Shown: one piece after another, positions 11,334-29,300 of the stretch
How the letters are laid out: each line of letters begins with the position of its first letter
How positions within the stretch are numbered: the first letter of the stretch is position 1
Origin: Acholeplasma laidlawii PG-8A
GTDB taxonomy: Bacteria; Bacillota_I; Bacilli_A; Acholeplasmatales; Acholeplasmataceae
Length of the DNA stretch: 32,000 bases
Assembly: GCF_000018785.1 (NCBI RefSeq)
Contig: NC_010163.1
Location: 1,140,001-1,172,000 of the forward strand
Direction of reading: 5' to 3'
Notes under the pieces: generated by a model
What the model was told of the DNA's origin: nothing
The model's database searches: none
Seen by the model: the letters and a program-made list of their open reading frames with translations, nothing else
Position numbers and translations under genes: made by a program

Positions 11334-11377
11334 AGTTTTAAACTCCTTAGGGTATAGAACTCATAAATTATATACTT

Positions 11378-11404: not shown

Positions 11405-11437
11405 AAATATAAGCGTATCTAGTAAATTAGATACGCT
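11401..11437 (-). terminator. Intrinsic terminator closing the giant-protein/McrB-like operon
   Basis: Perfect 10 bp stem agcgtatcta (11412-11421) / tagatacgct (11428-11437), 6 nt loop. On the minus strand it is followed by TATATTTTTGA. It begins 5 nt after the stop at 11443. It is the only terminator I can find downstream of position 32000 on this strand. Confidence 0.65.
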
Positions 11438-11442
11438 CATTT

Positions 11443-13272
11443 TTATTTTTTATTTTTATAATCCGTTAATGTTTTTGTAACATTTGATTTGATACTTTGT
11501 TTAAGTTTTTGATGTGCTTCTTTTAACTTCTTTAATTTAAGTTGTTTTTCTTTTACCAACTTTTCACGTTCTTGCTTTCTCTTAAGCGCTTCACGTTCTT
11601 TAATACGTAGTTTTTCTTGTGTCAGTTTTAGTGCTATCTTTTCTTTTTCAGCTTTCATGCGCTTATTTTGAATTTCTCTATACGTTTTAATCTCAGCTTG
11701 ATACTTATCTTGTATATCTTTAATCGCTTTATTATTTTTAATTCTTTGATCTTGTAATGCTTTTTTACTTTTTGAAGTTTCTGCTTTTTCAAGTGCTTTT
11801 AAAGTCTTATTCACTTCTTTTTGCATGTTTTGGATGAGTGTTTCATCATGCTTTTCACCAGATTTAATGATGCTTTCAATAGCATCTTCTTGGAGTTCAG
11901 TAAGTAAGTTAATCCATTTATCTTCTAGTAATACAGCATCTGTAAAAAGTTTTTCTTTAACTTGTCTCGCAGCCTTCGTCATGAGGTATCTGTTTAATGC
12001 TTCCTCATACTTTTTAACAGGATGCTTGTAGGTAAGTAGTTGACTAAATACATCATCATCTTGATTAAGTTTTAAGTAAGCATTAAAGATTTGGTCTGCA
12101 ATTGAATATTGATCCAGCAACACTTGTTTTAAATAGTTCGTGTTTTCTGGATTATTATCAATTACTAGATTAGCAAGTTCTTTTCTACTCATCAGTTGTT
12201 TTGCTTTTTCTAAATGATACTCTGTAGCAAGATTAGCTTCTAATACCATTTCAGGTATCGTTACATTCACACGTTCTACATAGGTTTCTGCATCACCTTT
12301 TATAGGTGTAAGGGACTGGAATGATACATCCTTGCTGTCAAGTAAGGAAATCCCCATATCACTATGTACAAATACACTTGTAAAGAGTGCCATTAAACCT
12401 TTATCAATATCATCAATCGAGGTGTCACTTAATGCTTTACTAGCTTCTTGAAGTTGTAGTGTAAAATCTAATACATTTAATCTATCTAAATAAAGCCATA
12501 GGGTATATGCATTTCTAAAGTCAGCATTTTTTTGAATCATTTGTGTTTTTAATATCGGTGGAACTACTTTTTTATAGCGTGACATGATGCGCATAAAGTC
12601 ACTGTGAAACATTCTAGATACCACTTTAAATGCAGCCTCAGTTCTCTCCAGTATACGTTTATTATGTAAATCAACTTCACCTGAATCAAATGTTTCTTTA
12701 GCATTTAACTCAAAATTTAAAGTATAGACAGAGTTACCTAATTTAAACTCGTTTTCTAGGTTAAAATTGGTTTGTTTATATCCATGGATATGGGTGTGAA
12801 TTGCTTCAATACGTTTAAGTAGATAGTGGTATAAACGATCAATTAACGTCATAATTAGTCTATTTTCATAAATACCGTAATCAAGTTCACTCACGGTATT
12901 TAATACTTTAGAAGGATATACTTCATCATCTTCATTAATATCTTTAATGTACTTAGTATTTCTTAGTATATGTCTTACAGATTCATTACTGGTACGTCTT
13001 GTACGTTCTACTGGAAGTATTTCTTCCTCATATTTAAGAGTATTTCTAATGTTACTAATAATTTGGTTTAGACTTGGGAAAAAAGATTCGATTTTAACAA
13101 TCCAATCTTCATCAAACTTTTTATATTCTAACTTATCTAAATGTTTAATTAAATCCTTATCTTGAATCGATAATGGTTTAAGAATTTGAGGATAGTATCC
13201 TGTATCATAAACAATATCTATACTTTTAGATAGTTCTTCTTGAAAGAATTTAATACGTTCTTTATTATTCAT
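11443..13272 (-). CDS. McrC-like partner protein (N-terminal McrC/DUF2357-like region, no clear PD-(D/E)xK motif, C-terminal K/E-rich helix)
   Basis: 609 aa. The segment SELDYGIYENRLIMTLIDRLYHYLLKRI resembles the E. coli McrC segment NEDTLANRIIKSTLAILIKH (from memory). The gene sits 9 nt after the McrB-like gene, preceded by GGTGAG. The last ~150 aa are extremely K/E/Q-rich (KEREALKRKQEREKLVKEKQLKLKKLKEAHQKLKQ). Confidence 0.4.
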   Translation of the reverse strand: MNNKERIKFFQEELSKSIDIVYDTGYYPQILKPLSIQDKDLIKHLDKLEYKKFDEDWIVKIESFFPSLNQIISNIRNTLKYEEEILPVERTRRTSNESVRHILRNTKYIKDINEDDEVYPSKVLNTVSELDYGIYENRLIMTLIDRLYHYLLKRIEAIHTHIHGYKQTNFNLENEFKLGNSVYTLNFELNAKETFDSGEVDLHNKRILERTEAAFKVVSRMFHSDFMRIMSRYKKVVPPILKTQMIQKNADFRNAYTLWLYLDRLNVLDFTLQLQEASKALSDTSIDDIDKGLMALFTSVFVHSDMGISLLDSKDVSFQSLTPIKGDAETYVERVNVTIPEMVLEANLATEYHLEKAKQLMSRKELANLVIDNNPENTNYLKQVLLDQYSIADQIFNAYLKLNQDDDVFSQLLTYKHPVKKYEEALNRYLMTKAARQVKEKLFTDAVLLEDKWINLLTELQEDAIESIIKSGEKHDETLIQNMQKEVNKTLKALEKAETSKSKKALQDQRIKNNKAIKDIQDKYQAEIKTYREIQNKRMKAEKEKIALKLTQEKLRIKEREALKRKQEREKLVKEKQLKLKKLKEAHQKLKQSIKSNVTKTLTDYKNKK

Positions 13273-13281
13273 GACTCACCA

Positions 13282-14775
13282 CTATATTTGTTTAATAAAC
13301 TTTAAAATCATGTCTTTAGATTCTTTAAGTTGATTCTTACCAAAGAGTTGATCAAATAATTGTAGTAACGTTTCGAGTTCATTTTTTAAGAATGGTAAGT
13401 TTAATGTTTCAAATTTACGAATAATCTTACGTGCAATAATATAGTCAATCCCTTCAATTTCACTGCGGCCACATGCCACGTAAATTGGAATAAATTTATA
13501 GAGCTGGTTCATAATACGATTACCAAATGTAATTTGGAATGTTTCACTAATAAACTCATCTAACTTTTCTAACGCTACTAGGTTCTTATTTGATATCTCA
13601 TGCTCTTTATAAGCTGTTTTAAATAGTTCATCTAAATAGTCATAAGAGATATTTATTCTATCTAACATTTGACCTTTAAATGGTTTAGCTTTTTCGTTCA
13701 TGACAATAGAACTTGCTCTATCATATACCTTATCTGTAATACCAAATGTGGAGTCATCATTATTTGCAGTACCAATAAACCAAACGTTTTTAGGTATTTG
13801 AAGTTGTCCTTCTTTTAAGTGCATTGGATCACCAATTAACTGTTCAGGGACTACTTCAATTAACCACTCATCACTGTTTGGTAGTTCTAGTAAGGATAAG
13901 AAGTCAGCAAAGTAATATTCTACTCTAGCTAAATTCATTTCATCTAGAACAATTAAATTAATATCTGTTCTATAACTTGCATCATATAGACTTGTTAAAA
14001 ACTCAGTTTCATTAAACTTTTTAGTAAACTCATTGTAGTAGCCCATCATTTCAAAACGGTCACGCCAAGAAGGTTGGACTGAAATAATAGATGCATCATT
14101 TTTAATAAACTTACCAAATACATAAGGTAGACTGGTTTTACCTGTACCTGAAATACCTTCTAGGATTAGTATTTTAGACGTTGCTAGACCTGCAATAAAT
14201 GTAGATGCTATCTTTTCTGAATAATAGATATTATGGTGTGAGCTTGCATAGTTGATAAAGTGTGTAACAATCTCACTTAAAGATAATTTGTCCTTATTAG
14301 TCATAAGGGTTGGTAAGACTGTGTATTTATATTTATCATCTATTAAGTTTAATTTTGTAAAGCGTGATCCTGTTGCAAGTTTTGGTTTACCTTTAGAATC
14401 ATTTAAGTTGAGCTTTGGTCCTTCAACATGAATAACTGTTGCATCACGCACTTTTCTTTCTAACATATTCATCTGGTTTAGTAAGGTCATCTTATCAAAC
14501 TCAATTTTAGCAAATCTAAAATATCGTTTAACAAGTTGTACAATAATTAACCAGGTCATGACGTATAAGAGTATAAATATAATGATAAAACCTATCGATA
14601 AAATCCAATCGATCAAATTAAAATTGATGGATTTATCCATTAAATAGTGATAATACTCTATCGGGTAACCAATAAATAAATTATAGATACCAGTGAAAAA
14701 GCCACTGATTAAATACCACAGATCGAGGAAGAATGTTTTAAAAAACTCTACTACCCAATTTGAAAAATGATCCAT
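13282..14775 (-). CDS. Membrane-anchored McrB-family AAA+ (AAA_5) GTPase
   Basis: 497 aa. Two N-terminal TM helices (LDLWYLISGFFTGIYNLFIGY; IDWILSIGFIIIFILLYVMTWLIIVQLV). Walker A LILEGISGTGKTS (14131-14157). McrB-type segment ISVQPSWRDRFEMMGYYNEF. Walker B LIVLDEMNLA (13927-13956). FIGTANNDDS (13750-13779) is the equivalent of McrB MNTADRS, with its NxxD. Its ATG overlaps the upstream stop (TAATG). Confidence 0.75.
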   Translation of the reverse strand: MDHFSNWVVEFFKTFFLDLWYLISGFFTGIYNLFIGYPIEYYHYLMDKSINFNLIDWILSIGFIIIFILLYVMTWLIIVQLVKRYFRFAKIEFDKMTLLNQMNMLERKVRDATVIHVEGPKLNLNDSKGKPKLATGSRFTKLNLIDDKYKYTVLPTLMTNKDKLSLSEIVTHFINYASSHHNIYYSEKIASTFIAGLATSKILILEGISGTGKTSLPYVFGKFIKNDASIISVQPSWRDRFEMMGYYNEFTKKFNETEFLTSLYDASYRTDINLIVLDEMNLARVEYYFADFLSLLELPNSDEWLIEVVPEQLIGDPMHLKEGQLQIPKNVWFIGTANNDDSTFGITDKVYDRASSIVMNEKAKPFKGQMLDRINISYDYLDELFKTAYKEHEISNKNLVALEKLDEFISETFQITFGNRIMNQLYKFIPIYVACGRSEIEGIDYIIARKIIRKFETLNLPFLKNELETLLQLFDQLFGKNQLKESKDMILKFIKQI

Positions 14776-16034
14776 TATCTTCTACCTCTTTTCTGTTTAT
14801 CCGCTTTAAATTGAAGTCTTTCTTTCGTGATGTGTGAAACATTTAAAAGAGATCCATCTTGAATTGATTTTTCTGTTTTGTATAAGACTTCTATATGATT
14901 TACTTTTGCAAAATATAATAATTCTGCAATCATATCATGTTCCATGACTTTATCATCAATTTCTAATCTCTTAATGTGATAACGTTGTAGTGCTAGATAT
15001 AATCCTTGATGAATCTCATCGACATGCATCGACATTTTAACACCTAAGTTACTAAGGGTTAATATATTTTTTATGAGTTCATCTTCATAAGTCACATTAC
15101 TTAATCGAATCGATAATATGACATTTTCTAGTAAGAACTGATTCGCCTTAACGATTGTTTGTAGATACTCTATGAAGGTTTCTTGTTCTAGTGTTGATAA
15201 TAACACTGGAATATTAATGTTTGCATAGATATTTTCATGATATAACTTGTTTAATATCATTTCTACTAACATCATATTGACCCAACTCATATCACTAACT
15301 GGTAGTTTATTTAAGAATACATCCAGTTTAGAACCATTAATCAGTAGTTCATTGAATACTTCATTTGTCTTTTTAATCTTTAAGGTTTCAACTTGATAGG
15401 TTTTTAATTCCAGTTCTACTTGTTTTAATTTATTGATTAAGTCTGCATAGGTTTCATAATCTTCTTTAACCATATCATCATGTGATGTGACTGCGCCTAA
15501 ATGTTTAATTGATGAAATAAGTGTACTAGAAAGTGCCTTTAAGTCAAAACTGTCGATTGTTGCAACACTTGCAGTTTTTGTAATATGGATGCCATTTTCA
15601 TGATAGGTCTTTTGGGCAAGCAGTTTAAATTGCTTGCCTAAAAGTTCTTTATCTTCATCCATAGAAGGGTAATACACAATAAATGTATCCCTTTGGTTGG
15701 TTTGTGCTAATTTACCACCAAATGGTAAATATACACTCAACTCTTTTGCGATATGTGTTAGGTAATTTCTAACTGTGTGATCGCTATATGTATGTTCAAC
15801 TAATGATAGATTGTTGATTTTTACTAAATATAAATAAAATGTGTGATTCTTTTTTTCTTGATATGCCAAATACTCTAAAAAGAGTTTATATTTTATGACT
15901 AGATTAAGGGTCAACATCTTATGTTTTTTCATCTTTTTAAGACTCTTTAAGTAATAATGAATACTTAAGTAGACTAAGACTAAAACAATAATGATTGCAC
16001 CTAAACTAATCAAACTTTTTTGTAGTTCATTCAT
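14775..16034 (-). CDS. Single-pass membrane protein with degenerate GGDEF-like and EAL-like domains
   Basis: 419 aa. TM helix at aa ~8-27 with almost no extracytoplasmic part. GGDEF-like block FYLYLVKINNLSLVEHTYSDHTVRNYLTHIAKEL...LAQTNQRDTFIVYYP (GGDEF replaced by QRDTF). EAL-like block YQVE...VFNELLI (EAL replaced by NEL), MSMHVDEIHQGLYLALQRYHIKRLEIDDKV (DDFGTG replaced by VDEIHQG, with an LKID-like LEID). Starts 13 nt after the giant gene stop. Confidence 0.5.
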   Translation of the reverse strand: MNELQKSLISLGAIIIVLVLVYLSIHYYLKSLKKMKKHKMLTLNLVIKYKLFLEYLAYQEKKNHTFYLYLVKINNLSLVEHTYSDHTVRNYLTHIAKELSVYLPFGGKLAQTNQRDTFIVYYPSMDEDKELLGKQFKLLAQKTYHENGIHITKTASVATIDSFDLKALSSTLISSIKHLGAVTSHDDMVKEDYETYADLINKLKQVELELKTYQVETLKIKKTNEVFNELLINGSKLDVFLNKLPVSDMSWVNMMLVEMILNKLYHENIYANINIPVLLSTLEQETFIEYLQTIVKANQFLLENVILSIRLSNVTYEDELIKNILTLSNLGVKMSMHVDEIHQGLYLALQRYHIKRLEIDDKVMEHDMIAELLYFAKVNHIEVLYKTEKSIQDGSLLNVSHITKERLQFKADKQKRGRR

Positions 16035-16047
16035 CTGTTATACCTTT

Positions 16048-19000
16048 CTAGAATATGAGTTGATTTTTATCTTTCTTGTTGTTTTTTCTAATACGTTTAA
16101 GGATGTAAGTCATTGCTGCTATAACCCATAAAATGATACTTATAATCAGTAAAATTGTAAGTAGTAAACTTGGTTGTTGTACTCTTTCAATAATGACCAT
16201 ATAATGCTGTATAGAGCCATCTTCTGCTTGCACAGATATTTTAATAACTTGGCTTTCTTGGATATCGGTTAAGATGATTTCACCCATGTTATTGGTACTA
16301 AAATCGCTGCCATTAATCGATACTTTGGAACTGTTATTCGCAACCGCATTTAACTTAACTGATTGTGTACCGTTAGACAATGAATATTTATAAACGAACG
16401 GATCGTTTTCATCGGATGTTATGACTTCTTCGTTATTAATTTGTAATAGTGTGATTTCTTTTAAGTTACTTAAGGATGTATCTCTTCTTAATGTTAATAC
16501 ATAAGTTAACTCTTCTAAACCATCACCACTAGTTACTGTGATGTGAACCACAGTATCTTCAGAACCAATCTCTCTAATACCAAATCCTCTAATACTTGCA
16601 CCACCTTGATCTTTAGCAAACCCTTTGATATTTACATATCTTGTATGTTTACCAATGATGATGGTGTATTCTAGTGTATCATCTAATAATGGAATGGTAT
16701 TTTGAATATCGTGTTCTCCAATCATTTCATAGACTGTTAATTCACCTAATAATGCATTGGAGTTTACATAAGATATATGTAGTTTATAACTAGATACATC
16801 ACCACTTTGAGCTTTAACTTCAATGGTAATCGTTCTTGTTTGACCTTCTATTAATGTATAGACATCATTTCCTTTAACTGTACTATTGTCACTTTGAGCT
16901 ACCCCATAAATATCAAGGTATTTTTCAAATTGTAGTGGATGTACGATGGTATATTCGAAGATGTCCGGATTAAAGCCTCGAACCATTTCACCATTTATCT
17001 CTAGAGTTTCTAATAAACTATTGGTATCAGGCAGTTGTCTATTGACATAGATTGTATATACTTCTGATGTATTTGAACCATTGGTGGATTCAATTCTAAA
17101 TCTGTAAACTATTTGACTACCTACACCAAAACTTTGGAGTCTGTTATCTTCAATTTCTGTATTACTTGCATCTAAATAGATTACATTACCAATTGTTTGG
17201 ACAATCAGTCTTGTAGTATCTACATTAAATGGTACTAAGATATCTTCATAAACATAGATATTATTTTTAAACTCTAAACCAAAGTATGAAATACCATCAT
17301 CTCCAAGAATGGAAATATCTTTGACTTCTGCAAGACTTGCAAAATCTAAATCATGTAATACGTAAATGATATATTCACCAATACTACCATCTTCTGCAAC
17401 TACAGTTACAGTAATGATGGTATTGTAGTATCCTTCAACTTCACCATGTAGTTGGATGATGCCGGTGTTATAAAGTATTTGAGTTTCATGATTCTTTTCT
17501 GCTAATACATGGACTGTATTTAGTTTCATATCATCATTTAATGTAATATTATATGTACGGTTTTCTGGATTAAATATAGATTGGTCAAATGCTAGTATAT
17601 TACCGTTAACATCTTCTATTACTAATGTTTTTAGTGTAGTATCTGTATTTGGTAGTGCTCTTGTTATATTAAATTTATATTCTTTTTCAGCAACTGTACC
17701 ATCTTCTGCAGTCACTCGTAAGCGAATCACTTTAGTTAGTCCTGGTATCAGTGCGTATGCACCTTCACCAAATACCGTTGCAGCCTTACTTTCAGTATGC
17801 CCTTTAATATACATTTCATCATGTCCAAAAGGTAGTTGAATGTTATATTCATAGATAGTTGGGTCAAAATCGAATATAAGTTTGTTGATTGGAATTTCAA
17901 TTGTGACATCTAATAAATTGGTGTTATCACTTAATACCGGGTCTGTTGCTTTACGTTTATAGACGTTAATAGTGTATTCAATGCCTTTATCTCCATTTTC
18001 AGCTATAACATAGAACTTCACTGTGATTGTATTTCCAGAGGTTAGGTTAAAGTCTTTACGTGTATTAATTTCTTGTACACCGTTAATAAATACGAGTGCT
18101 TTGTTATGTGTCTCAACACGTAAACGTGCAATCGTTGTCGATGCAGGAAACTCTAAGTCATAAGTTGTGATTTCAGGATCAAAGTTTAGACGATTAATAT
18201 TGGTACTTGCATCAAAGAAACGCACGTCAATGATTTGGTTATCACTACTATAGGTTTGTTCAATAGTAAGGGTAATAGTCTTGGTTGTTTTACCACTTTC
18301 GGATGTAAAGACAATTCTAATCGTGTTTTGTCCAAAACTTAAATTGACGTCATGATCTTGTACTAAATTACCTTCAGTATCATAGATAACATAAGTACCA
18401 AAATTACTTATCATTGGTATCACTTTGATGGTTTTTTGGTCATTTGTAACACTATCCATCACGTAATCTAATACGCCTTCTTCATAAATATCTGTTTGAC
18501 CTACAAGTAATTGATCAATTAAAATCTCATCATTTACTTTTTCCACTTCAATTAAGTAGGTTCTAGCAGGTTTGTTAAGATCTTCTGGTTGCACACTAAT
18601 TTCAAATCGGTTGATACCGTGTTTAATATTTAACGGTATTCGTAAATCACCTGTTACTGTTTGTTTAGTTGATGCATTTGTAACATCTATCATGATGTGT
18701 TCTACAGTTTCATTGACTACAAATTTATATGTATTTGTTAAAGCATCAAACACTATTTGTGGGTTCACTGATGCATCACCTAATAGGTAGAGGTTATCTT
18801 GTGTTTTAACTAGGATGTTATCTAGAGTGTCTAAATCATCTAGTAATTGTTTAACTAAGACAGTATATGTTTTTGTTGTTGAACCATCTTCAGATGTGAC
18901 ATCTATTTTGATGGTATTTTCACCAGGTAAGATATCTAAAATAAAGTGTTCTGATAAGTTTCCATTAATTTTAACTGTTCCATATAGATCAGTTAGTACT

Positions 19001-22000
19001 GCTTCAATGTCTAGTGTTTTCTTATCAGATGAAACATCTTCTAATCTAATTATAGATTCACCAGGTAGAAGTCTATCAACACCATCAATAAATAGGTTTT
19101 GTAGATTGATTTCTGAATTAATAATGGTGATTTCAACTCGAATAATGAATGCTTCAATTGCTAAATCTTCAGGTTGAACTTCAATTTCAAATACATTTAG
19201 TCCATGTGTTAATGGTTGAGCAACATTAAATGGTGTACCACTTAATGTTTGTCCATAGTTTGCTATATAACTAAATGTAACGTTTGTATGATATTCATTT
19301 AAGCTAAATTGATATAGGTTATTTTCCGGATCAAAGTTAGCTGTTGTAAGTAGATCTTCTAGATTTGTTTTTATACCTAGATTTGCTAATTTATCTTCTG
19401 TGTTAAATAATCTAGTGACATAGACTGTATATAGTGGACTTACATCACCATTTTCTGCTTCCACATAGAATGTAATTTCTTTTGTTTCACCAGAAACTAA
19501 TGTATATACACCTTCACCAAAACTAGTAGCTTTAGCATTTTTTACAATAGCTAGAGTAACTTCTGTTGTTAGGTAATCTACATTTATGTTGTATGTTTCG
19601 ATGTCTTTATCAAAGTTTAATAATTGTGCACCTGATGTACCAGTAAGTGTTGCTGTAAACTCATTGTCACTAGATGCTAGTCTTGTGATGATGACTTCAT
19701 ATACTTGAACCACTTCGTTATATGCATTCAATACTTCAACTGATACTTTATTCTCACCCATTTCTAGATTTAGTGGTGAAGTAATTACTTTACCAACTTT
19801 ATCTTTTAAGATGATGGAACCATCATTAAATAAGCTTTCAGATAGGATGTTTGCTTGTTCCTCTTCTGTTGTGTAATGTATTTCATTACTTGATGTATCT
19901 TGTACATCACCATTAATGGTTAAATGTTTTAAATCATTTTCTTTGTTTAATACATTAATCGTAATGGTATAGATAAATGGTTGTGTGTTGATACTATCTT
20001 CAGCTAGAACTGTGACTACAAATACGTTTGCACCTTTATTAAGTGTTAAAGTACTTGGGTTTGTTTTATCTACTGTTTGGTAAGTATCTGATTTTACATA
20101 TCTAATAATTAAGTTTCTGTATTTAATGTCTAAATACTCTAAACCTAAATTAATGACATAGTTATTAGTTGTCTTATCGAATACAATATCTGGATTTTTG
20201 CCGGATATACCAATTAAGTAGTTTGTTGGGTCCAGTGTATCGATAATACTTATTTCTTCTAAGTGGTTGTTTGTAGAAAGTGCTCTTCTTGTTACACCGA
20301 TGGTATAAATTTCAGATTCAGAACCATCTTCAGCTGTGACTTTAAATGTAATTGTGATTGTTTCATCTAAGTTGATTATGTATTTACCTAAGCCGGTTGC
20401 TGTTGCCTTGGCTGGAATTATTGCACCTAATGTGACATGTTCTACATTTTGAGGTACTTCTACAGTATATGTAAGGGTGAGTGGATCAAATGTGATATAG
20501 TTTGTTCCATTACTTCCGATTAAACTTACATTCGATAGTGTCTTCTCACTTGATTTTAAACGTGTGATTTCTAAGGTATGTGTCTTAACGATTTCTCCAT
20601 ACTCATTTTTGATTTCAATTGTGAAGACATTTTCATCAAAGTTTAGATTTGGCGTATTGGTTACTACATTCCCTAGACTATCTTTAATCACGAAGCTACC
20701 ATGTGCCTGGTGTGTTAAAACAGGTGTAATGGTTACACTTTCTTTTTCCGTATCAAAATAGTTTACATCTTGAACTGTTAATGCTTTTCCATCTACAGTC
20801 AGAGATTGTAGGCTATTTGATTTATATAAGACTTCTATGATGATGGTGTACTTACCTTGAGTTACTGTTTCATCTTCGGCCTTAATGAAGATTTCAAAGC
20901 GGTTCGTGCCATGGTTAAGGGTCAGTGGTGCGTTAATTGGACCAGTAATTGTTTGAGCGATATGACCTTTAACGATGTTAATGATGATTTCTTCATTAAT
21001 ATAGGTTTCATCTAGTTTTATGTTATATGTTTTAGTCGTTGGGTTAAATGTTATTCCCTTTGGACTTAAGGTATCTAAACCTAGTAAGTATAATCCTGAG
21101 TTTAATGGATCTGTTACTGTAAGATTGTTTAGATTAATCTCTTTAGAAGCTGCCTGTCTATGAATTGTAATTGTATAAGGATCAGATACTGTACCATCTT
21201 CTGCAGTAATCGAGAATTCAAAAGTATTTTCACCTACAACTAAACTGATATTATTTAATTTATTTGGTGTCACTTGTGCCTTATTATGTGTTGGTGTAAT
21301 TTCAATATTTAAACTCTTTTGACTATAAGGTAAATTAAGTACAACTGAGTTATTAGCAAGTAGTTCATCAAATGGGAATGTCACTACTTGGTTATCTTGA
21401 TTTTTAATAGATACATTACTTAATGAATTATCACTGCTTAGTACAATATTTTTAACAAAACGTATTTGATAGGTCTTAGTACTATTATCTTCAGCACTTA
21501 CCTTGAATGTGATGGTTTGGTCTAAGCCACCTTCACCATTGTAAGTAAGTACTATATTAGATAAATTAAATGTAGATTCTAGTACTTGTTTATCAGTGTT
21601 TTTAAGTTCAATGTCAACTTTAACATTTGAAATGGAACTTGTATCAGGTAGTTCTACTAAATAATTCGTACCATCTGCTTTATAAGTAATATTTTGACTA
21701 TTAGAAATGTTAGTGATAGATAGTGATGATATATCAGTATCTTTATACGGTTCGTTTCTGTAGACGTTTAATCTATATGTATTGCCTGATTTAGTACCAT
21801 ATTCACTTTCACCATATATTTCAATAATGTTATTTCCATACTGAAGTGGTATGGAAGTAGCGTTTTTAACGCCGTTTACATAGTAGTTAGCAAACGTATC
21901 ATTTAAGACAACATGAATTGGCAGACTTGATACTGTATATAAAACATTGTCTAATGTATATTCAAATTCACTATCTATAAATCCGATGTCGTTTGAATTA

Positions 22001-25000
22001 CCTTTAATGTTATTGATTTCATGATCATCATTCTTACTTACGATATAAACTGTATATTCTTTAGAATGTGTACCGCTTTGAGAGGTTACTGTAATCGTAT
22101 AGCTGTTAGTGATACCAGGTTTAATTTCTTTAATACCTAAACCTGTTACAGTGGAAAACTCTTTACCAACTGCACTTATTTGAACACTCATGTGTGTTCT
22201 ATCTACTCTTAAGTATTCACCTTCATAACGAATGATTGAACTATCAAATACACCATCTAGTAAGTTGATGCCACCTACAATGATTTCTAGTGAATCTAAT
22301 TCAGCTAGTGTACTTGCAGCTTTTCTTGTATATGTAAAGTTATAGTTTTGAGATTTAGCTTCTGCAGCATATTCTGTAGAAAGTAAATCGGATTGAATTC
22401 TTAGTGTAATTATTTGGTTGGTTCCAACTACAAGCGTATGTGTGTAGGTAATTAAACCATCTTCATCCGCAAATAGTGTTGTACCACCATTAAAGGATAT
22501 TCTTGCAAATCTATCCTTTGGTGTCACAATAAATGTTAGTTGATTTGTTTGGAAATCAAACTCACCTAAATTAGGCACACTTAAAATATCACCTGTATAA
22601 ATTACAGTTGAGCCATTTTTAATTACAATATTATCAATACCTATTTCAACGTTTTTACGCCAAATAGTAACTTTGTAGGTATTTGATGTACCATCTTCTG
22701 CTTTTACAATAATATCGATGACATTAGATGGTTGTGCTGCAGGGTCATTTAAATTATATGTATATGTATACCTATGATTTAACCCTGATGTATCAGTTAG
22801 ACTAAATGGTGTTTGTACACTTGAGCGATCACTTGATAAAACAGTAGCTACAAACGTTACAGTATTCACTTGTCTATCTACTCTTAAAGTATAAGTGTTG
22901 GTAGTTGGATCAAAGTCTAATAAGATATTGTTTCCATTTACCATTACTTCTAGATCATCTAGATTTTTATGAGATTGGGCTACTTGTCTATTCACACGAA
23001 TCTTTAGATATTCTCCAAAGTTTCCTGCTTGAGATTTGACTCTAAATTGACCTTCAATCACACCTGTTTTTGAAAATAACCAAATACCTGTTTGATTATC
23101 ACCAATAAAGTTTGATGTAATCATTGATTTAGAACCATCTACCATGTTAAATGTAATGTTTAACCTATCGACATTATATGCAATATTTCCAATGTCTAGG
23201 ACACCTGATATAAACTCTTGTGCTGTAAATGTTTGTGTAACAAAGCCTGTTCCACTTACAGTAACTGATTCAAAGGTTTTTACATCATTAGCTCTTTTGA
23301 TGCTGATTGTGTAAGTTTTAAGTACGCCACCTTCTGAATATACTTGTATAGTCAAGTTTGAGGTTGCTCCACTTAAAACATTAAATTGTTGGTCTATTAA
23401 ACTTGTAGTACCTTTAGTTCCAATGTATGCATAGTTTTGTTCATTAACTTCGGCTGAATAAATAAGTGGCCATAGTTCATCACGATCATCAATTGTAACT
23501 GTGTAGTTAGTTTTACTACTCAAGAAACTTAAATCAATAATTTCACCATTGTTCGTTTTTAAAACAAAGGATTCTAAACTATTGTCTGTTTTTGCTTGAG
23601 CTCTCACGATATTAATGACATACTCACTGCCTTTGGTTCCTGCTTCACTTTCGACCCAAACTTTAAAGGTTGTTGTGCCATTTCCAATTGCTTTAACATA
23701 GGTGTCATTGATGCGCACCTGTCCATCAATGTATACTTTGGAATCTACATTTTGAGGTGATGCTGTAATTGTGACATTACTATTAAATGAATAGTTGATG
23801 TTAATGGTATTGTTAAGTTTTGCTGGATCAAAAACAAAATCAGTACCTTCAATATTTAAAGACTTTAACGTTGTATCATTTGTTGCAACAACAAATGGAA
23901 TAATAATTGTATTTTTTTCACCATTTTGTGCAGTGACTATAATCGTCACATTTTGTTCAATTCCTCGAACAAATGGAATATTTGTACTGTATCTTCCTGT
24001 TTCATTTTTAGTAAATGTTGTTGAACCAACTTTTATTGTTGCTTTAGATGTAGTAGGTAACAACACTTCAAAATTAAGCGTGTTAATACCACCAACAGGT
24101 TCAACAATTACTTTATTATAAGTGACATTAGAGTCACCAATTTGGAACTGAGAAAAAGGTAATCCACCAATATTGATTGCGCTTATATCATTGTTAGAAT
24201 CAGCAGCAGTACGTGTAATTTGAATTGTATAGTTTTTAACTACAGCACCATTTTCTGATGTTACTTCTAAACTTGTAGTTTTAATGACTTCATACATACC
24301 ACTAAAGTCTAAAGGCGTAATCAATTGGTTTGTTGTTGTACCTTTAATAATTGATTTGGTTGATGTTTTAGTTTCCAGTTTTAAGTTACTTGGAAATAGA
24401 CCATAGTCAAAACTGTATGTATATTTATTTTCAGATGATATGAATGTAAAATCATCTAGGTTTGCAATGACAGTACCATCATCGGTTCTAAATATAATCG
24501 ATTCTAATTCTGCTTGATCAGATTTTTTTTCTATTTTAATTGTGTATTCTTTTTCAGTACCATCTTGAGCTTTAATCGTAAGGATAAAATTGTTGGTTCC
24601 GTAATTTAGGCTAGCCACACTAATTTGATGTATGAGTTGTGCACTTTGGTATGTACCTTCACCAATTTTAGCCTCTCTTTTGCTACCTGGATCAATAGTT
24701 AAAGTAACAAACTCACTACTATTGTTACTTACTGTGTAAACTAAGTTTGTAATATTTAGATTTATAGCAGTAAGGCCTGATTCTTGAACCTTAATATCAC
24801 CCGTTTTAATTGATGTGTCATTAGATGGTTCAATAACAAAGTTTACAATATATGTAACTACTTCATCAGGGAATTGACTTTCTGGTGTAACCACTACTTC
24901 ATAAGAGTATGTTTCACCAGTTTCTAGTGAACTCTTAGAGATGATACCCGTTGTATAGTCTTTATAAGTTGTAGTACCTACTTCTTTATATTTAATGGTT

Positions 25001-26310
25001 TGACCTGTTTGGTTCTTAGCTATTTGAAAGCTTAAGGATGTTTTAGTGTGTGGATAATTAATTGTAAATACATTACCCACAGGTGCAAGACCTTGAGGAT
25101 ATTCATTGGTTATAATTTTTATATTAGCGTCTGATGACCCTTTTTCACGTTTCACATATACAGGATAATTAGTTGTTGTTGAGCCGTTTTCAGCTGTAAC
25201 ATTGAAATCACCAATATGCGTAAATACATCTTGCTCGATGTTAGTTACTCTAATTTCATTTTTATCCAGTGTTGCAAAAGGATATGCTGTTGTAGCTAGT
25301 ATCTTTATATCATTTTCTGTGAAGGGTGTTACAATCTCATAGCGATTGTCTACACTGTTAAAAGTAATTGTTCCTAAATCACCTTGTGCTAGTTTAAGTT
25401 CGATTCCAGTATTTGTTGATTCACTACTGACAGTTAACTTGATTTCATAGATCTTTGTTGCATCCCCATCAGTAGTAGTAATTGTAATCGTATCACCTGT
25501 CTGATAATTAGTGGATGCTTTACTTTCAGTCTTGACATAGTTAGAACTACCTAAACTTGTTTTGGTAAAGACAGGATTGATGGTTAAACCACCAATACTG
25601 TCTTGATAATCTATTGTAATATTTTGCGTGATCTTGCCTTCTACTTCTGTAGCAGAAACATTGAATGGATATACTTTACTTGTTGTAGTTCCAGTAATGT
25701 TTAGTGCAGAGAGTGTTGCATCAGGGGTTGAGTTAGGATCTCCTATGATGATACTTGCCAACGAGATATCAGTTCCAGTGTATTCAATAGTTCCACTATC
25801 CCAACTTGCAGCTTCCATTATCATCTCAATTTCTAAATTCTCCGCCGGATCATTTTTGTTATATTTGATTAGTACAGTCGCAAGTTTTACTGGAGTAGTT
25901 GTAATAGATGCATCTGCTCCACCGCTAGTTGCTAGTATAACAGAATTATTTAGAGTACCACTATCAAACCAATTTTCAGGTCTACCTCCAGCAAATGGTA
26001 CATATGTACCTAGTGTTTCAACATAAGATATACCTTGTAGTTTACTGTTTGATGAAAAATCAAACTGAATGTTTGTTAATCTTTCTGTACTTCCTGTGAG
26101 TGACACAGCATATATATCTGCCCTAACAACATCACCATCATAAGGATCTTCAAAGTATTGTTGATCTAGATAAGCCTTTGTAAAGTTCTTTTGCCCACCT
26201 ATTTCAAAATAAATTTCCATTTTCGCTGATACTGCACTTGTTGATTGAATGTTCATTATGATTGTAGCTAAGAAAATAAACATCAGTGCAATTATTCTTT
26301 TATATTTCAT
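16048..26310 (-). CDS. Giant (about 3420 aa) cell-surface protein: signal peptide, cohesin-like domain, about 32 cadherin-like beta-sandwich modules, C-terminal TM anchor
   Basis: A 10.3 kb ORF uninterrupted in AT-rich DNA. Signal peptide KYKRIIALMFIFLATIIMNIQSTSAVSA. Repeating module signature L..L.V.G..L..F.P....Y.V.V......V.I.A....A.V...G...L..G.N.I.I.VTAEDG...YTI.V.R. C-terminal LLLTILLIISIILWVIAAMTYIL followed by KRIRKNNKKDKNQLIF. The ORF-track start at 26319 is a GTG. The ATG at 26310 is preceded by AGGTGA with 5 nt spacing. Confidence 0.9.
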   Translation of the reverse strand: MKYKRIIALMFIFLATIIMNIQSTSAVSAKMEIYFEIGGQKNFTKAYLDQQYFEDPYDGDVVRADIYAVSLTGSTERLTNIQFDFSSNSKLQGISYVETLGTYVPFAGGRPENWFDSGTLNNSVILATSGGADASITTTPVKLATVLIKYNKNDPAENLEIEMIMEAASWDSGTIEYTGTDISLASIIIGDPNSTPDATLSALNITGTTTSKVYPFNVSATEVEGKITQNITIDYQDSIGGLTINPVFTKTSLGSSNYVKTESKASTNYQTGDTITITTTDGDATKIYEIKLTVSSESTNTGIELKLAQGDLGTITFNSVDNRYEIVTPFTENDIKILATTAYPFATLDKNEIRVTNIEQDVFTHIGDFNVTAENGSTTTNYPVYVKREKGSSDANIKIITNEYPQGLAPVGNVFTINYPHTKTSLSFQIAKNQTGQTIKYKEVGTTTYKDYTTGIISKSSLETGETYSYEVVVTPESQFPDEVVTYIVNFVIEPSNDTSIKTGDIKVQESGLTAINLNITNLVYTVSNNSSEFVTLTIDPGSKREAKIGEGTYQSAQLIHQISVASLNYGTNNFILTIKAQDGTEKEYTIKIEKKSDQAELESIIFRTDDGTVIANLDDFTFISSENKYTYSFDYGLFPSNLKLETKTSTKSIIKGTTTNQLITPLDFSGMYEVIKTTSLEVTSENGAVVKNYTIQITRTAADSNNDISAINIGGLPFSQFQIGDSNVTYNKVIVEPVGGINTLNFEVLLPTTSKATIKVGSTTFTKNETGRYSTNIPFVRGIEQNVTIIVTAQNGEKNTIIIPFVVATNDTTLKSLNIEGTDFVFDPAKLNNTININYSFNSNVTITASPQNVDSKVYIDGQVRINDTYVKAIGNGTTTFKVWVESEAGTKGSEYVINIVRAQAKTDNSLESFVLKTNNGEIIDLSFLSSKTNYTVTIDDRDELWPLIYSAEVNEQNYAYIGTKGTTSLIDQQFNVLSGATSNLTIQVYSEGGVLKTYTISIKRANDVKTFESVTVSGTGFVTQTFTAQEFISGVLDIGNIAYNVDRLNITFNMVDGSKSMITSNFIGDNQTGIWLFSKTGVIEGQFRVKSQAGNFGEYLKIRVNRQVAQSHKNLDDLEVMVNGNNILLDFDPTTNTYTLRVDRQVNTVTFVATVLSSDRSSVQTPFSLTDTSGLNHRYTYTYNLNDPAAQPSNVIDIIVKAEDGTSNTYKVTIWRKNVEIGIDNIVIKNGSTVIYTGDILSVPNLGEFDFQTNQLTFIVTPKDRFARISFNGGTTLFADEDGLITYTHTLVVGTNQIITLRIQSDLLSTEYAAEAKSQNYNFTYTRKAASTLAELDSLEIIVGGINLLDGVFDSSIIRYEGEYLRVDRTHMSVQISAVGKEFSTVTGLGIKEIKPGITNSYTITVTSQSGTHSKEYTVYIVSKNDDHEINNIKGNSNDIGFIDSEFEYTLDNVLYTVSSLPIHVVLNDTFANYYVNGVKNATSIPLQYGNNIIEIYGESEYGTKSGNTYRLNVYRNEPYKDTDISSLSITNISNSQNITYKADGTNYLVELPDTSSISNVKVDIELKNTDKQVLESTFNLSNIVLTYNGEGGLDQTITFKVSAEDNSTKTYQIRFVKNIVLSSDNSLSNVSIKNQDNQVVTFPFDELLANNSVVLNLPYSQKSLNIEITPTHNKAQVTPNKLNNISLVVGENTFEFSITAEDGTVSDPYTITIHRQAASKEINLNNLTVTDPLNSGLYLLGLDTLSPKGITFNPTTKTYNIKLDETYINEEIIINIVKGHIAQTITGPINAPLTLNHGTNRFEIFIKAEDETVTQGKYTIIIEVLYKSNSLQSLTVDGKALTVQDVNYFDTEKESVTITPVLTHQAHGSFVIKDSLGNVVTNTPNLNFDENVFTIEIKNEYGEIVKTHTLEITRLKSSEKTLSNVSLIGSNGTNYITFDPLTLTYTVEVPQNVEHVTLGAIIPAKATATGLGKYIINLDETITITFKVTAEDGSESEIYTIGVTRRALSTNNHLEEISIIDTLDPTNYLIGISGKNPDIVFDKTTNNYVINLGLEYLDIKYRNLIIRYVKSDTYQTVDKTNPSTLTLNKGANVFVVTVLAEDSINTQPFIYTITINVLNKENDLKHLTINGDVQDTSSNEIHYTTEEEQANILSESLFNDGSIILKDKVGKVITSPLNLEMGENKVSVEVLNAYNEVVQVYEVIITRLASSDNEFTATLTGTSGAQLLNFDKDIETYNINVDYLTTEVTLAIVKNAKATSFGEGVYTLVSGETKEITFYVEAENGDVSPLYTVYVTRLFNTEDKLANLGIKTNLEDLLTTANFDPENNLYQFSLNEYHTNVTFSYIANYGQTLSGTPFNVAQPLTHGLNVFEIEVQPEDLAIEAFIIRVEITIINSEINLQNLFIDGVDRLLPGESIIRLEDVSSDKKTLDIEAVLTDLYGTVKINGNLSEHFILDILPGENTIKIDVTSEDGSTTKTYTVLVKQLLDDLDTLDNILVKTQDNLYLLGDASVNPQIVFDALTNTYKFVVNETVEHIMIDVTNASTKQTVTGDLRIPLNIKHGINRFEISVQPEDLNKPARTYLIEVEKVNDEILIDQLLVGQTDIYEEGVLDYVMDSVTNDQKTIKVIPMISNFGTYVIYDTEGNLVQDHDVNLSFGQNTIRIVFTSESGKTTKTITLTIEQTYSSDNQIIDVRFFDASTNINRLNFDPEITTYDLEFPASTTIARLRVETHNKALVFINGVQEINTRKDFNLTSGNTITVKFYVIAENGDKGIEYTINVYKRKATDPVLSDNTNLLDVTIEIPINKLIFDFDPTIYEYNIQLPFGHDEMYIKGHTESKAATVFGEGAYALIPGLTKVIRLRVTAEDGTVAEKEYKFNITRALPNTDTTLKTLVIEDVNGNILAFDQSIFNPENRTYNITLNDDMKLNTVHVLAEKNHETQILYNTGIIQLHGEVEGYYNTIITVTVVAEDGSIGEYIIYVLHDLDFASLAEVKDISILGDDGISYFGLEFKNNIYVYEDILVPFNVDTTRLIVQTIGNVIYLDASNTEIEDNRLQSFGVGSQIVYRFRIESTNGSNTSEVYTIYVNRQLPDTNSLLETLEINGEMVRGFNPDIFEYTIVHPLQFEKYLDIYGVAQSDNSTVKGNDVYTLIEGQTRTITIEVKAQSGDVSSYKLHISYVNSNALLGELTVYEMIGEHDIQNTIPLLDDTLEYTIIIGKHTRYVNIKGFAKDQGGASIRGFGIREIGSEDTVVHITVTSGDGLEELTYVLTLRRDTSLSNLKEITLLQINNEEVITSDENDPFVYKYSLSNGTQSVKLNAVANNSSKVSINGSDFSTNNMGEIILTDIQESQVIKISVQAEDGSIQHYMVIIERVQQPSLLLTILLIISIILWVIAAMTYILKRIRKNNKKDKNQLIF
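16174..25734 (-). repeat. About 32 tandem, diverged coding repeats of about 100 aa (cadherin-like beta-sandwich modules)
   Basis: I counted 32 module ends of the type YTI.V.R / Y.V.I.K in the translation. 3187 aa divided by 32 gives about 100 aa per module. The repeats are diverged at DNA level; only the TAEDGT-coding cores recur. Confidence 0.8.
25735..26223 (-). other. Cohesin-like domain at the mature N-terminus of the giant protein
   Basis: The 163 aa after the signal peptide run GDVVRADIYAVSLTGSTERLTNIQFDFSSNSKLQGISYVETLG ... SVILATSGGADASITTTPVKLATVLIKY. This parallels the cohesin pattern GD.V.vpv......gi....f.l.yD...l......G ... dG.latv.fkv (compared from memory with C. thermocellum CipA cohesins). 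Confidence 0.5.
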
Positions 26311-26311
26311 A

Positions 26312-29300
26312 TTATTCACCTAAATTCATCGTGGTTGTTTGATTTTTGTCCCAAAAAGGGGTTTTCGAATTTAAATGGTTAATTAATGCGGTTTGATCTA
26401 ATACATTAATCTTCCCATCGCCTGTAGTGTCTGCGGCTAGTAGATTGGATAATAAGATTGGTTGTTTACGATTCAAGTGGTTAATTAGTGTGGTTTGATC
26501 CATAACATTCACTCTTCCATCGCCGTTAATATCACCTTTAAGTACAACATGTACTCTATCCGTAATATTTCCATTACTATCTTTAATAACTATCATACGT
26601 CCACTAGCAACTATATCTTGATCTGTTAATTCTTTACCATTTTTATCTAAGAAGTAAAGTTCTTTATTAACGAAGTTTTCCTTCAGGTTTGCCCAAGTTT
26701 GATTTTGGAATACACCCATCAAGTAAATTGGATTGGTTTCGTCATAATAATTTCTTTCTTCAATTGGTATAACACTTGTTACTTCTGCATGGAACATACC
26801 AAGCATACTTTCTGGTTTAAGTTTAATATAACTGTCGTATTCATAAACGGCAGTTAATTTAATACTACCTATAACTGTATTTGGTTTTATTTCTTCAATA
26901 TAGGTTCCAAGATCTTCATTTGCTAAAATATTTGCTTGACGTCTTGCCATTTGGCGCATGTCTTGTGATGTTTCATCTTGTTCTACCATGTACCAACCAA
27001 CAAACTTATAACCATTTTTGTTTGCTTGATTAAATCTGATGTAGTCTTCAATGGTATACATTGTTGGGTTGATTGCAAGCCCACCATTTAAGTCGTAGCT
27101 TATACCATAACTTATTGGTTGCCAGTATGCTGTTAAAACTAAACTACCAACATTATTATATGTAAATGAATCGCCATCACCATATGATGGTAAGACATTA
27201 CCATCAACAATCCAGCCCATAAAGTCATAACCTTTTCTTACATAACCAAGATCCGTTAGTACAACATTATCATCAAAGTTTACCGTCATTGGTGTCATTG
27301 AACCTTCCACAATGACTTCATCACCTTCGTTATAACCATCATTAAAGATAATGTTATATCTTCCTGCAACAAAGACCGCATGAACTGTCATATCACCTGT
27401 GACTCTATCAATGTGTTTATCCCAGTTTGTAAATCTGTAACCTGGTTTTTCAGGATCTGAAGGAATAATAGGACGTCCATTATAAGGGACAATAACTTCT
27501 TCATGTACTTCTTCACCGGACATATAAGTAACAACATATAGTCTTATCTCTTGATTAAATGCTGCTTCAAGTTGGATATCTTGTGTGACCGATTCTTCAA
27601 AGATATTAAATACGGTAGTACTTCCTTTAATCACCCAATGACTAAACACGAATGTGTATTGCATTGTTGGCAATTTACTTGGTATTTCAGTTGGTGGTAT
27701 TAATGTTTGTCCATGTAAAACAGTCAGTGTTTTAAATAAAGCACCATTACCATCAAACAGAGTCACTTTATATTCTTTATACACTTCTTTATAACGTGCA
27801 ACAAAGATCATATGCTCTGTTAGAATTTCAGGAACTACCTTATCCCAACCATCAAATGCATAATCAAAACCTTCACCACCTGGTTTGTTGACTACATTTG
27901 GTTCTATAATTGGGTCCCCATAGGCACCTACAATTTGTTTTAGGATGGTTGTTTGATCATCATCATAGAATGTATAAATAAACTTCCTTGGTGTACCTAA
28001 GTACTGAGTTTGTACAATTAAGTCCTCTGTAATAAAACTAAATGTCTTATCCCAACCAGAGAATACATAAACTGTACTTGTTGTTGATGATTTTACTGGT
28101 ATGTCATCAGTATTTGGTTCTACAGCACCTTCACCGTATTTGACCATTTGTTTTTCAATGACATGACCAAATTCATCAATAAATGTGACTTCATATTCTT
28201 GTAAATGATTGTAAAAAATTGCTTTAATTGTAATATCTTCATACACTTTAACTGTTAAAGTTTCCCACATTCTAAAAGTGTAATAATATTGTTTGTTTGG
28301 ATCTTTTGTTGGTGTATTTAAAGGCATTTTAGGAGTAGCACCATAATAAACTTCTTGCTCATCAAATACATTTCCGTTACCATCTAAGAAGGTTACTATG
28401 TAAACTCTTAAGTGTTCTTCATAATATGGATAATAATTCTCATCTGATGTAACAACTTCATTAAATACTGGATTCCAACTTATAAATTCATAGCTAAATT
28501 GTCTATCTGCTGGTTTTATTGGACCACTTGGTGCCATAATCACTTGACCATAGGTTGCAGTGATGGTGCTAATAATTGTTGTAGTATCATAATCATAAAA
28601 TGTTAATGTATAAATACGTTCGATCTTTTCATAATATAGTTCTGTTACAATATCTTCTGTAACATTATCAAATTTGACACTCCAACGTATCATGTAGTGA
28701 TAATAGTTATCACTTTCTAATATTGGTACATCTGGTGCTTTAGCACTACTGCCTTTATTTACTAATTCTTCTTTAATGATAATACCTTTATCGTTTTTAA
28801 AGATAACTAAGTACTGTCTTGTAACCATATCAAATATTGGTCTAACAATTAAATCACTTGTAACAACATCATAGTTTACATCCCATGATTTAAAGACGTA
28901 AGATACATCATCTGTTGGTGTTTTAGAAGGTATACCATTTGGTGTTATAGCACTTTGTCCATAACTAATTGTTTGTTCATCGAAGACATTTCCATTGCCA
29001 TCTAAGAATGTGACTTGATAGGTTGTTTTTACATAATTATAGGTTGGATAGATTTCTAAGTTCTCTGTAACATAATTAGATGGTTCGGACCATCCTGTAA
29101 ACAGAAAGAAGAAATCAGGATTTGGACTTACCTTAATTGGAGTAGTTGGCTCAAATGCCTTAGAACCATATTCGATGATTTGCGTATCACCAATTTGGTT
29201 ATTTAATGCATCATAGAATCTAACTTCATAGTATCTATTTACCTCACTATATAGTGCATAAATAGTTCTATTTTCTCTAACATTTATTAGATCTTGATCC

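Follow-up and report, generated by a model that had tools for sequence, protein, structure and literature searches.

A 32 kb stretch of the Acholeplasma laidlawii PG-8A genome (NC_010163.1; hereafter the window, whose numbering is used for coordinates) carries, behind two genes for giant surface proteins, three genes that encode a 419 aa degenerate GGDEF-EAL protein, a 497 aa McrB-like protein and a 609 aa McrC-like protein. McrBC is a textbook restriction enzyme; the McrB-like and McrC-like pair of the window is not one. We propose that the pair is a McrBC derivative of the class named CoCoPALM and that at the membrane it uses GTP to drive a step by which an extracellular fibre or matrix is exported, assembled or anchored, this step being turned on by cyclic di-GMP (c-di-GMP); we give this reading a probability of roughly 0.55. 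The proposal draws on the domain identities of the proteins, on their synteny, on the structure of the operon and on a link of the family to c-di-GMP riboswitches. Features are collected in Table 1; the A. laidlawii genome LS483439.1 was used to extend the analysis beyond the window edge.

The middle protein is an AAA+ protein of McrB type, as a reading made from the sequence alone had held. Its only relatives among PDB sequences are those of E. coli McrB (E 0.003 when the sequence alone was used, 7e-4 with a profile of 13 members), and hhalign aligned its family to E. coli McrB over 189 columns, from Walker A to the signature, with a probability of 94% (E 1e-7). Walker A, Walker B and residues N338, D340 and D341 are invariant in 13 relatives. 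When the body of the AlphaFold2 model was searched with Foldseek it fell among RavA, dynein, MCM, BchI, T. gammatolerans McrB and BrxL, confirming the AAA+ class. The sequence-only reading had also taken the NNDD tetrapeptide for the NxxD motif of McrB; the signature is better read as an N-x-D-[DE] variant, a motif common to the coiled-coil GTPases P0242 and P0253 (P numbers denote homologous proteins). Aligned without gaps to E. coli McrB, D341 coincides with the aspartate of NxxD, and to speak of a deletion follows the convention of Bell et al. (PMC11090510). The full-length protein gave nothing significant in Pfam, AAA_5 included, and no DNA-binding family was found in Pfam or NCBIfam, nor any N-terminal DNA-recognition domain. 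What stands at the N terminus instead is a membrane module: in the model (mean pLDDT 72.5) a helical hairpin (residues 2-49 and 54-112) is followed by a disordered linker (113-135), the AAA+ body and a lid, with residues 1-112 membrane-associated or helical. The DNA-reading domain had been described as replaced by two transmembrane helices; replaced it is, but by hydropathy there is a single strong transmembrane helix with an aromatic amphipathic helix before it. Since the transmembrane helix is followed by KRYFRFAK, the body is predicted to be cytoplasmic. This N-terminal module is kept over its full length in relatives. The transmembrane helix runs on as a short helical extension (82-112), an architecture like that of the FtsB-like transmembrane and coiled-coil domain of CoCoPALM GTPases; the N terminus gave no match to DivIC/FtsB of Pfam at E values up to 10.

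The 609 aa protein gave no match at full length in Pfam (including McrBC and DUF2357) or in other libraries. Only once the coiled-coil tail was trimmed did a match surface: residues 1-310 score 25.6 bits against DUF2357 (E 8.7e-6, cut-off 23.3), and eight of 26 homologues reach 36-46 bits, which bears out the McrC-like N-terminal region that had been suggested. A YENR motif within it is invariant in the family alignment. The AlphaFold2 model (mean pLDDT 72.7) has a confident N-terminal domain with a long beta hairpin that would be compatible with the finger of McrC, a poorly predicted middle and, past residue 200, one strand and otherwise helices, with no nuclease-like fold. The alignment of the 26 homologues holds no conserved D...(D/E)xK and no extra domain at the site of the nuclease, and in the PDB the protein has no Foldseek match and by sequence gives coiled-coil noise only. 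A PD-(D/E)xK nuclease is missing; the sequence-only reading had not found a properly spaced motif for one either. A highly charged C-terminal helix of about 150 aa had been noted as well; the helix is there, but in the model it is a single helix of ~190 residues (418-608), and its charge is basic (27% K+R, net charge +21). Two homologues, P0133 and P0136 (49-51% identical), have C-terminal Rho_N domains (PF07498) after the coiled coil, with a best E of 2.2e-9, a hint that in some members the tail may touch nucleic acid.

The 419 aa protein, 100% identical to an A. laidlawii database protein, scores below threshold against Pfam EAL (3.5e-3) and GGDEF (0.03), and its relatives reach both families. 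Alignment to the GGDEF-EAL proteins of 466-478 aa found in canonical operons (below) served as a bridge and shows GGDEF changed to QRDTF, EAL(x)R changed to ELLIN, and the ExxE, DDFGTG, lysine, EGVE and QG positions all replaced. The sequence-only description of a GGDEF-EAL protein with mutated catalytic signatures was essentially right. Operon homologues from loci L010 and L003 (L numbers denote loci) keep EAL(x)R, EGVE/EAIE and QG. By hydropathy there is one transmembrane helix, at residues ~9-31, and because a lysine-rich stretch follows it the body is predicted to be cytoplasmic. Within the gene a near-perfect inverted repeat of 16 pairs (window 15609-15644) lies over the codons for LLGKQFKLLAQK and scores as terminator-like on the plus strand.

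The three genes form a tightly coupled cassette at the end of a giant-protein operon. We verified the short junctions between them in the sequence and coordinates: 13 nt with an internal AAAGG ribosome-binding site between the TAG of the second giant gene and the ATG of the 419 aa gene, one base shared by the 419 stop and the 497 start, and 9 nt carrying GGTGAG between the 497 stop and the 609 ATG. A scan of 11409-16500 for terminator-like sites on the minus strand found only one, a 13-pair stem with a T-run directly 3' of the 609 stop, the sole terminator that had been proposed. The first operon gene visible in the window encodes, in LS483439.1, a protein of 6233 aa with Flg_new repeats (Pfam 3.4e-25) and a C-terminal type I dockerin (Dockerin_1 1.3e-12), and ends 1 nt before the start of the next gene. 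That gene encodes a giant of 3423 aa whose N terminus is a Sec-type signal peptide, whose Cadherin-like beta-sandwich repeats number at least 11 (Pfam PF12733, 1.3e-123, 11 stretches) and which, by hydropathy, has a C-terminal transmembrane anchor at 3379-3410 and behind it a short basic tail. In L001, L022, L088 and L089 the module likewise has upstream of it a homologous giant that shares this C-terminal anchor. The sequence-only reading had spoken of a cohesin-dockerin fibre; the dockerin was recovered, whereas searches of Pfam and the PDB with residues 1-230 of the anchored giant detected no cohesin. In the published table of A. laidlawii transcription start sites (PMC5138195, supplementary Table 1), mapped with an offset of ~1409 that was fixed from five neighbouring genes, there is no minus-strand start between the downstream peptidase gene and 1,183,299, a position within ~1.7 kb of where the 6233 aa gene is predicted to begin; the starts tagged ACL_1119 and ACL_1120 also lie within ~1.7 kb of it, the offset being uncertain. 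Given this lack of an internal start, the giants and the trio are consistent with one transcript of ~32 kb, for which a missing detected start is not proof. Together with the recurrence of the arrangement in other genera, described next, the map backs the proposed linkage of the trio to the giant genes. No mention of ACL_1115 to ACL_1119 was found in the literature.

Relatives of the 497 aa protein are numerous. A word-indexed search listed 8000, all full length, from Acholeplasmatales, Izemoplasmatales and many Bacillota metagenome-assembled genomes; 8145 representatives at 50% clustering match it, 736 of them below 1e-30, and at least 586 GTDB species genomes match. About 50% identity, the full-length architecture and a stable synteny to secretion genes are kept across orders. 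For a census of gene context we called open reading frames in 80 species loci and clustered the neighbours; 66 loci had enough downstream sequence and 34 had both flanks. The gene after the McrB-like gene is McrC-like in 56 of the 66, in which the pair is thus syntenic. Among the 34 two-flank loci, a SipW-like signal peptidase (assigned by TIGR02228, the archaeal-type signal peptidase I model) lies within seven genes in 33, small proteins with a basic-hydrophobic N terminus ending in [TS][YF]AW[FY][ST] occur in 26, GGDEF/EAL proteins in 19, and proteins of at least 1500 aa in only three. In A. granularum two genes of ~200 aa that flank the pair pass TIGR02228 (57 and 83 bits, cut-off 51.85) and also resemble SipW. 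The typical, or canonical, order is GGDEF-EAL (786 aa), GGDEF-EAL (~470 aa), three small proteins, SipW, McrB-like, McrC-like, a second SipW and more small proteins, and A. laidlawii carries exactly this operon ~120 kb from the window.

What the window holds is a variant paralogue of that operon. In a neighbour-joining tree its GTPase groups with those of L001, L004 and L022, sister to the canonical Acholeplasma clade, and these three are the only census loci with an upstream giant and a gene like that for the 419 aa protein. The quartet of giant, dead GGDEF-EAL, McrB-like and McrC-like genes also occurs in Haploplasma axanthum, Alteracholeplasma palmae and Izemoplasmatales metagenome-assembled genomes, so that three cultured genera share it; its members in H. 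axanthum and A. palmae are a Cadherin-like giant of 3437-3498 aa, a GGDEF/EAL remnant of 428-442 aa, a GTPase of 498-504 aa and a DUF2357 protein of 596-601 aa, and the downstream genes differ. Neither the window nor the window-type loci L088 and L089 yielded a signal-peptidase gene. Other arrangements were seen too. Six Acholeplasmataceae/Mariniplasma loci (L010, L018, L020, L021, L024 and L074) have the McrB-like gene followed by three small proteins of YAWF type, with no McrC-like gene in the available sequence, and in four of them a giant of ~2300 aa comes next. Another six (L057, L058, L059, L069, L071 and L075), from metagenome-assembled genomes labelled Clostridia/Erysipelotrichaceae, have a McrC-like protein of only ~370 aa without the long tail, and two other unannotated families (~300-350 and 330 aa) upstream.

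The canonical operons are probably regulated by c-di-GMP. A scan of 19 canonical loci with Rfam gave aptamers of c-di-GMP-I class in 16, on the strand of the operon, all RF01051 at 53-69 bits apart from one RF03167. The canonical A. laidlawii operon (L085) has a tandem pair in the leader of the first small-protein gene and another aptamer after the second SipW gene; the other loci that bear them are L003, L007, L010, L011, L014, L016, L017, L020, L023, L025, L026, L028, L037, L044 and L053, where again the leader of the first small-protein gene often has them in tandem. Published start sites for the canonical A. laidlawii operon include 1037131 (ACL_1013) and 1040980 (ACL_1015) (PMC5138195, supplementary Table 1). 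The start of the first small secreted-protein gene lies 266 nt upstream of the gene, which fits a riboswitch-bearing leader, and is among the strongest of all, its coverage (627/251/562/569) being among the highest in the table, which indicates that the canonical system is strongly transcribed in culture; the upstream GGDEF-EAL gene has a weak start of its own (PMC5138195). The window and five other window-type loci, all of which stop short of the 5' end of the giant operon, gave no c-di-GMP-I riboswitch, and neither did L057, the sole scanned locus of the variant with a McrC-like protein of ~370 aa. We found no report of a link between these riboswitches and CoCoPALM, and it is absent from the published description of the class (PMC11090510).

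Table 1. Positions of the genes, protein segments and regulatory elements discussed in the text (window positions, except for the aptamers).
Feature	Position	Strand	Remarks
Giant dockerin protein gene, 3' part	26312..32000	minus	frame open to base 32000 (window edge)
Giant cadherin-repeat surface protein gene	16048..26319	minus	3423 aa from GTG; 3420 aa from ATG at 26310
419 aa degenerate GGDEF-EAL gene	14775-16034	minus	
497 aa McrB-like gene	13282-14775	minus	
497: N-terminal module, residues 1-112	14440..14775	minus	hydropathy, AlphaFold2, family conservation
497: strong transmembrane helix, residues ~56-81	14533-14610	minus	hydropathy
497: AAA+ GTPase body	13282..14439	minus	PDB matches, hhalign, Foldseek
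497: Walker A GISGTGKTS	14131-14157	minus	in body
497: Walker B VLDEMNLA	13927-13950	minus	in body
497: signature N338-N-D340-D341	13753-13764	minus	in body
609 aa McrC-like gene	11443-13272	minus	
609: N-terminal domain, residues 1-310	12343..13272	minus	DUF2357 61-164, YENR 135-138, hairpin 164-195
609: middle helical region and C-terminal basic helix	11443..12342	minus	AlphaFold2, composition
Intrinsic terminator closing the operon	11409..11440	minus	terminator scan and sequence
Canonical A. laidlawii operon aptamers	L085 6213-6288, 6373-6449, 13932-14011	operon strand	Rfam
C39-like cysteine peptidase lipoprotein gene	10194-11333	minus	Peptidase_C39_2 6.6e-25, lipobox LTAC
Crp/Fnr-type regulator gene	7052-7747	plus	cNMP_binding and HTH_Crp_2

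It had been stated that no system of this composition was described; that goes too far, as a survey of McrBC systems by Bell et al. (eLife 2024) named the class CoCoPALM, without analysis and deferred to a later paper, in one paragraph that contains no c-di-GMP enzymes, riboswitches or giant adhesins (PMC11090510). The same survey describes a branch of McrBC with the signature cut down to NxD, "usually followed by a glutamate or a second aspartate" (PMC11090510). The window pair fits CoCoPALM in several respects. Its GTPase has the shortened N-x-D signature with a second acidic residue and an N-terminal transmembrane and coiled-coil segment, its McrC homologue combines DUF2357 with a coiled coil, so that both proteins have coiled coils (a short one in the 497 aa protein), and signal-peptidase genes are associated family-wide, including beside the canonical copy in the same genome. 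It differs in that its own operon has no adjoining signal peptidase and no genes for small secreted proteins, and in being joined to two giant surface proteins and a dead GGDEF-EAL protein. With classical McrBC (E. coli McrB/McrC; PDB 6hz4 and 6ut6) the pair shares an AAA+ core alignable from Walker A to the signature, the tightly coupled order of B then C, and the N-terminal domain family of McrC in the partner; in contrast, it has a membrane anchor instead of a DNA-reading domain, a basic helix instead of a PD-(D/E)xK nuclease, N-x-D-D instead of N-x-x-D, and no methyltransferase or defence genes around it. The CoCoNuT systems (coiled-coil nuclease tandems; PMC11090510) belong to the same N-x-D GTPase clade, with 40-48% identity in the GTPase body, have coiled coils and have often lost the McrC nuclease; their GTPases, however, have soluble coiled coils of 350-450 residues and always occur with HEPN or other nucleases, whereas the window operon has a membrane anchor and no nuclease anywhere. 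A further parallel is with tapA-sipW-tasA of Bacillus. Canonical relatives of the pair encode a dedicated SipW/archaeal-type peptidase among small secreted proteins whose N termini resemble SipW-cognate signal peptides, but no relation of these proteins to TasA was detected and the window operon lacks such genes. To our knowledge, TasA operons contain no NTPase.

Based on these results we propose that the McrB-type GTPase is held by its N-terminal anchor at the cytoplasmic face of the membrane, presumably as a hexameric ring, and that the nuclease-less McrC homologue plugs and stimulates this ring through its DUF2357 domain, its long basic helix projecting outward. In the canonical family the pair is encoded within operons for secreted proteins with SipW-type signals, where two SipW-like peptidases flank it and GGDEF-EAL enzymes and c-di-GMP-I riboswitches stand at the head, and it is this setting that suggests a role in fibre or matrix formation at the membrane, switched on by c-di-GMP. 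GTP hydrolysis might then drive export, assembly, anchoring, extraction or signalling. In the window paralogue the small subunits and SipW genes are gone, as are the riboswitches as far as the window reaches, the partners now being the 6233 aa dockerin protein and the 3420 aa anchored cadherin-repeat protein, and the adjacent GGDEF-EAL gene has decayed to one for a non-catalytic anchored protein that may serve the GTPase as an adaptor or as a sensor of c-di-GMP. A more far-reaching version, which we put forward tentatively and consider somewhat short of an even chance, is that a McrBC chassis was exapted as a GTP-driven, c-di-GMP-controlled membrane machine that builds, anchors or releases fibres and giant adhesins, with the 419 aa protein coupling c-di-GMP to the ring directly and not via riboswitches.

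Several observations weigh against this proposal of a membrane GTPase for surface fibres. Foldseek with the 497 model does not single out McrB among AAA+ proteins and finds no McrC match for the 609 model, and a direct comparison of the 609 family with E. coli McrC by hhalign gave a negative result; it is therefore DUF2357 and the conserved gene order that carry the link of the 609 aa protein to McrC. Some loci hold the GTPase without a McrC-like gene. A PDB profile search detected no relation between the small secreted proteins and TasA or any solved pilin, and a SipW-cognate signal model matches weakly in two of 20 of them. The signal peptides of the giants are of the ordinary Sec kind, and neither a SipW gene nor one for a small subunit lies in the window, so that synteny is what ties the GTPase pair to the giants. 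The 419 aa protein lacks the EAL arginine and the RxxD I-site, and judged from its sequence its binding of c-di-GMP is uncertain. The Rho_N domains of two 609 homologues and the basic tail leave room for a role directed at nucleic acid. Finally, we found no follow-up on CoCoPALM and no experimental work on any member of the class.

Three other explanations were weighed, each of which we consider improbable. The trio could be a McrBC-derived anti-phage or conflict module in which a membrane-level or unseen effector replaces the nuclease, perhaps gated by a cyclic nucleotide, as the second of two readings offered from the sequence had it. Besides the McrBC ancestry and the kinship to GTPases of CoCoNuT kind, which are predicted defence systems (PMC11090510), this could draw on a match of the GTPase core to the PADLOC candidate model PDC-M26A at 4e-43. 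That match, however, takes in profile positions 303-431 of 724 and the GTPase core alone, canonical CoCoPALM GTPases and long coiled-coil relatives match equally well, and the 609 and 419 aa proteins and their canonical homologues have no PADLOC match; it therefore marks membership of the clade, not defence. No paper containing "PDC-M26" was found in the literature. There is also no nuclease or other effector domain. The locus is fixed in all 14 public A. laidlawii contigs that carry it, each with an identical 497 aa protein at the same place, and in LS483439.1 it lies at ~1.15 Mb, between the giant genes and housekeeping genes (acyl-CoA dehydrogenase, electron-transfer flavoprotein (ETF), RibD and similar). 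The window neighbourhood likewise holds no methyltransferase or defence genes, and the identity and secretion-gene synteny kept across orders are unlike the patchy occurrence of defence islands. A defence island was rejected on this gene context, and defence in general seems to us quite unlikely. The surface-fibre role, the first of the two readings from the sequence, is favoured over it, and is supported family-wide by the SipW peptidases, the small secreted proteins and the c-di-GMP riboswitches.

LapA, LapD and LapG govern c-di-GMP-dependent adhesin retention in Pseudomonas, and the window resembles their genes in having a giant repeat adhesin beside a membrane-anchored degenerate GGDEF-EAL protein with a surface cysteine peptidase adjoining. 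By analogy, the 419 aa protein might sense c-di-GMP and, via the GTPase pair, control release of the giant adhesin by the C39-like peptidase in an inside-out switch, an idea that would suit the c-di-GMP control of the wider family but that we consider unlikely. With only ~8 extracytoplasmic residues and neither a periplasmic nor an output domain, the 419 aa protein cannot bind a surface protease as LapD does, and Lap has no McrBC-like pair. The peptidase is moreover of another family and is outside the module, since its gene sits beyond the terminator and the genes downstream differ in other genera: it adjoins the operon in A. laidlawii strains and is absent beside the module in H. axanthum, A. 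palmae, L001, L004 and L022. It is also transcribed separately, from a published start ~27 nt upstream of its ATG at 11333 (TSS 1151372, assigned to ACL_1114; PMC5138195, supplementary Table 1), which a -10 element TATAAT at 11367-11372 fits. Least probable of the three, and in our view very unlikely, is an action of the pair on nucleic acid at the membrane; it might, for instance, use the basic helix to tether or remodel the DNA of the surface-protein genes or their very long mRNAs while export proceeds co-translationally. The charge of the 609 tail and the Rho_N domains of its homologues would accord with this, as would the predicted targeting of RNA by the sister CoCoNuT clade (PMC11090510), but the window proteins have no detectable domain for binding nucleic acid, acidic lipids could just as well be what the basic helix binds, and the gene context gives no pointer to nucleic-acid metabolism.

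These data indicate that a large clade of McrBC relatives, represented by thousands of sequence clusters, has lost the two parts directed at DNA, taken up a place at the membrane and come to be encoded in operons that probably serve surface fibres. The class itself was already recognised under the name CoCoPALM; the variant with giant adhesins and the c-di-GMP riboswitch link are what we have not found reported. If the proposed fibre role holds, it would reveal an NTP-dependent step in the surface biogenesis of bacteria of the Gram-positive lineage and of wall-less bacteria, and add an output of c-di-GMP signalling in relatives of the Mollicutes; if the exaptation did occur, it would provide the first case of a McrBC relative that works outside nucleic-acid conflict. 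The riboswitches offer a concrete and testable regulatory handle, and A. laidlawii is cultivable, has the canonical and the giant-adhesin variants in one genome and has published genetic tools (PMC10805103). There is also a practical consequence in that models of defence finders such as PADLOC PDC-M26A will match these non-defence GTPases through the shared core.

Two neighbouring features deserve mention. A gene for a Crp/Fnr-type regulator stands ~3.7 kb downstream of the operon, divergent from the acyl-CoA dehydrogenase/ETF genes, and no link between it and the module was seen. In A. palmae, an ATPase of 427 aa (AAA_15/AAA_23/SMC_N) and a gene for a 269 aa protein follow directly after the module (L089 13564-15656); these two may be an unrelated pair of defence type.

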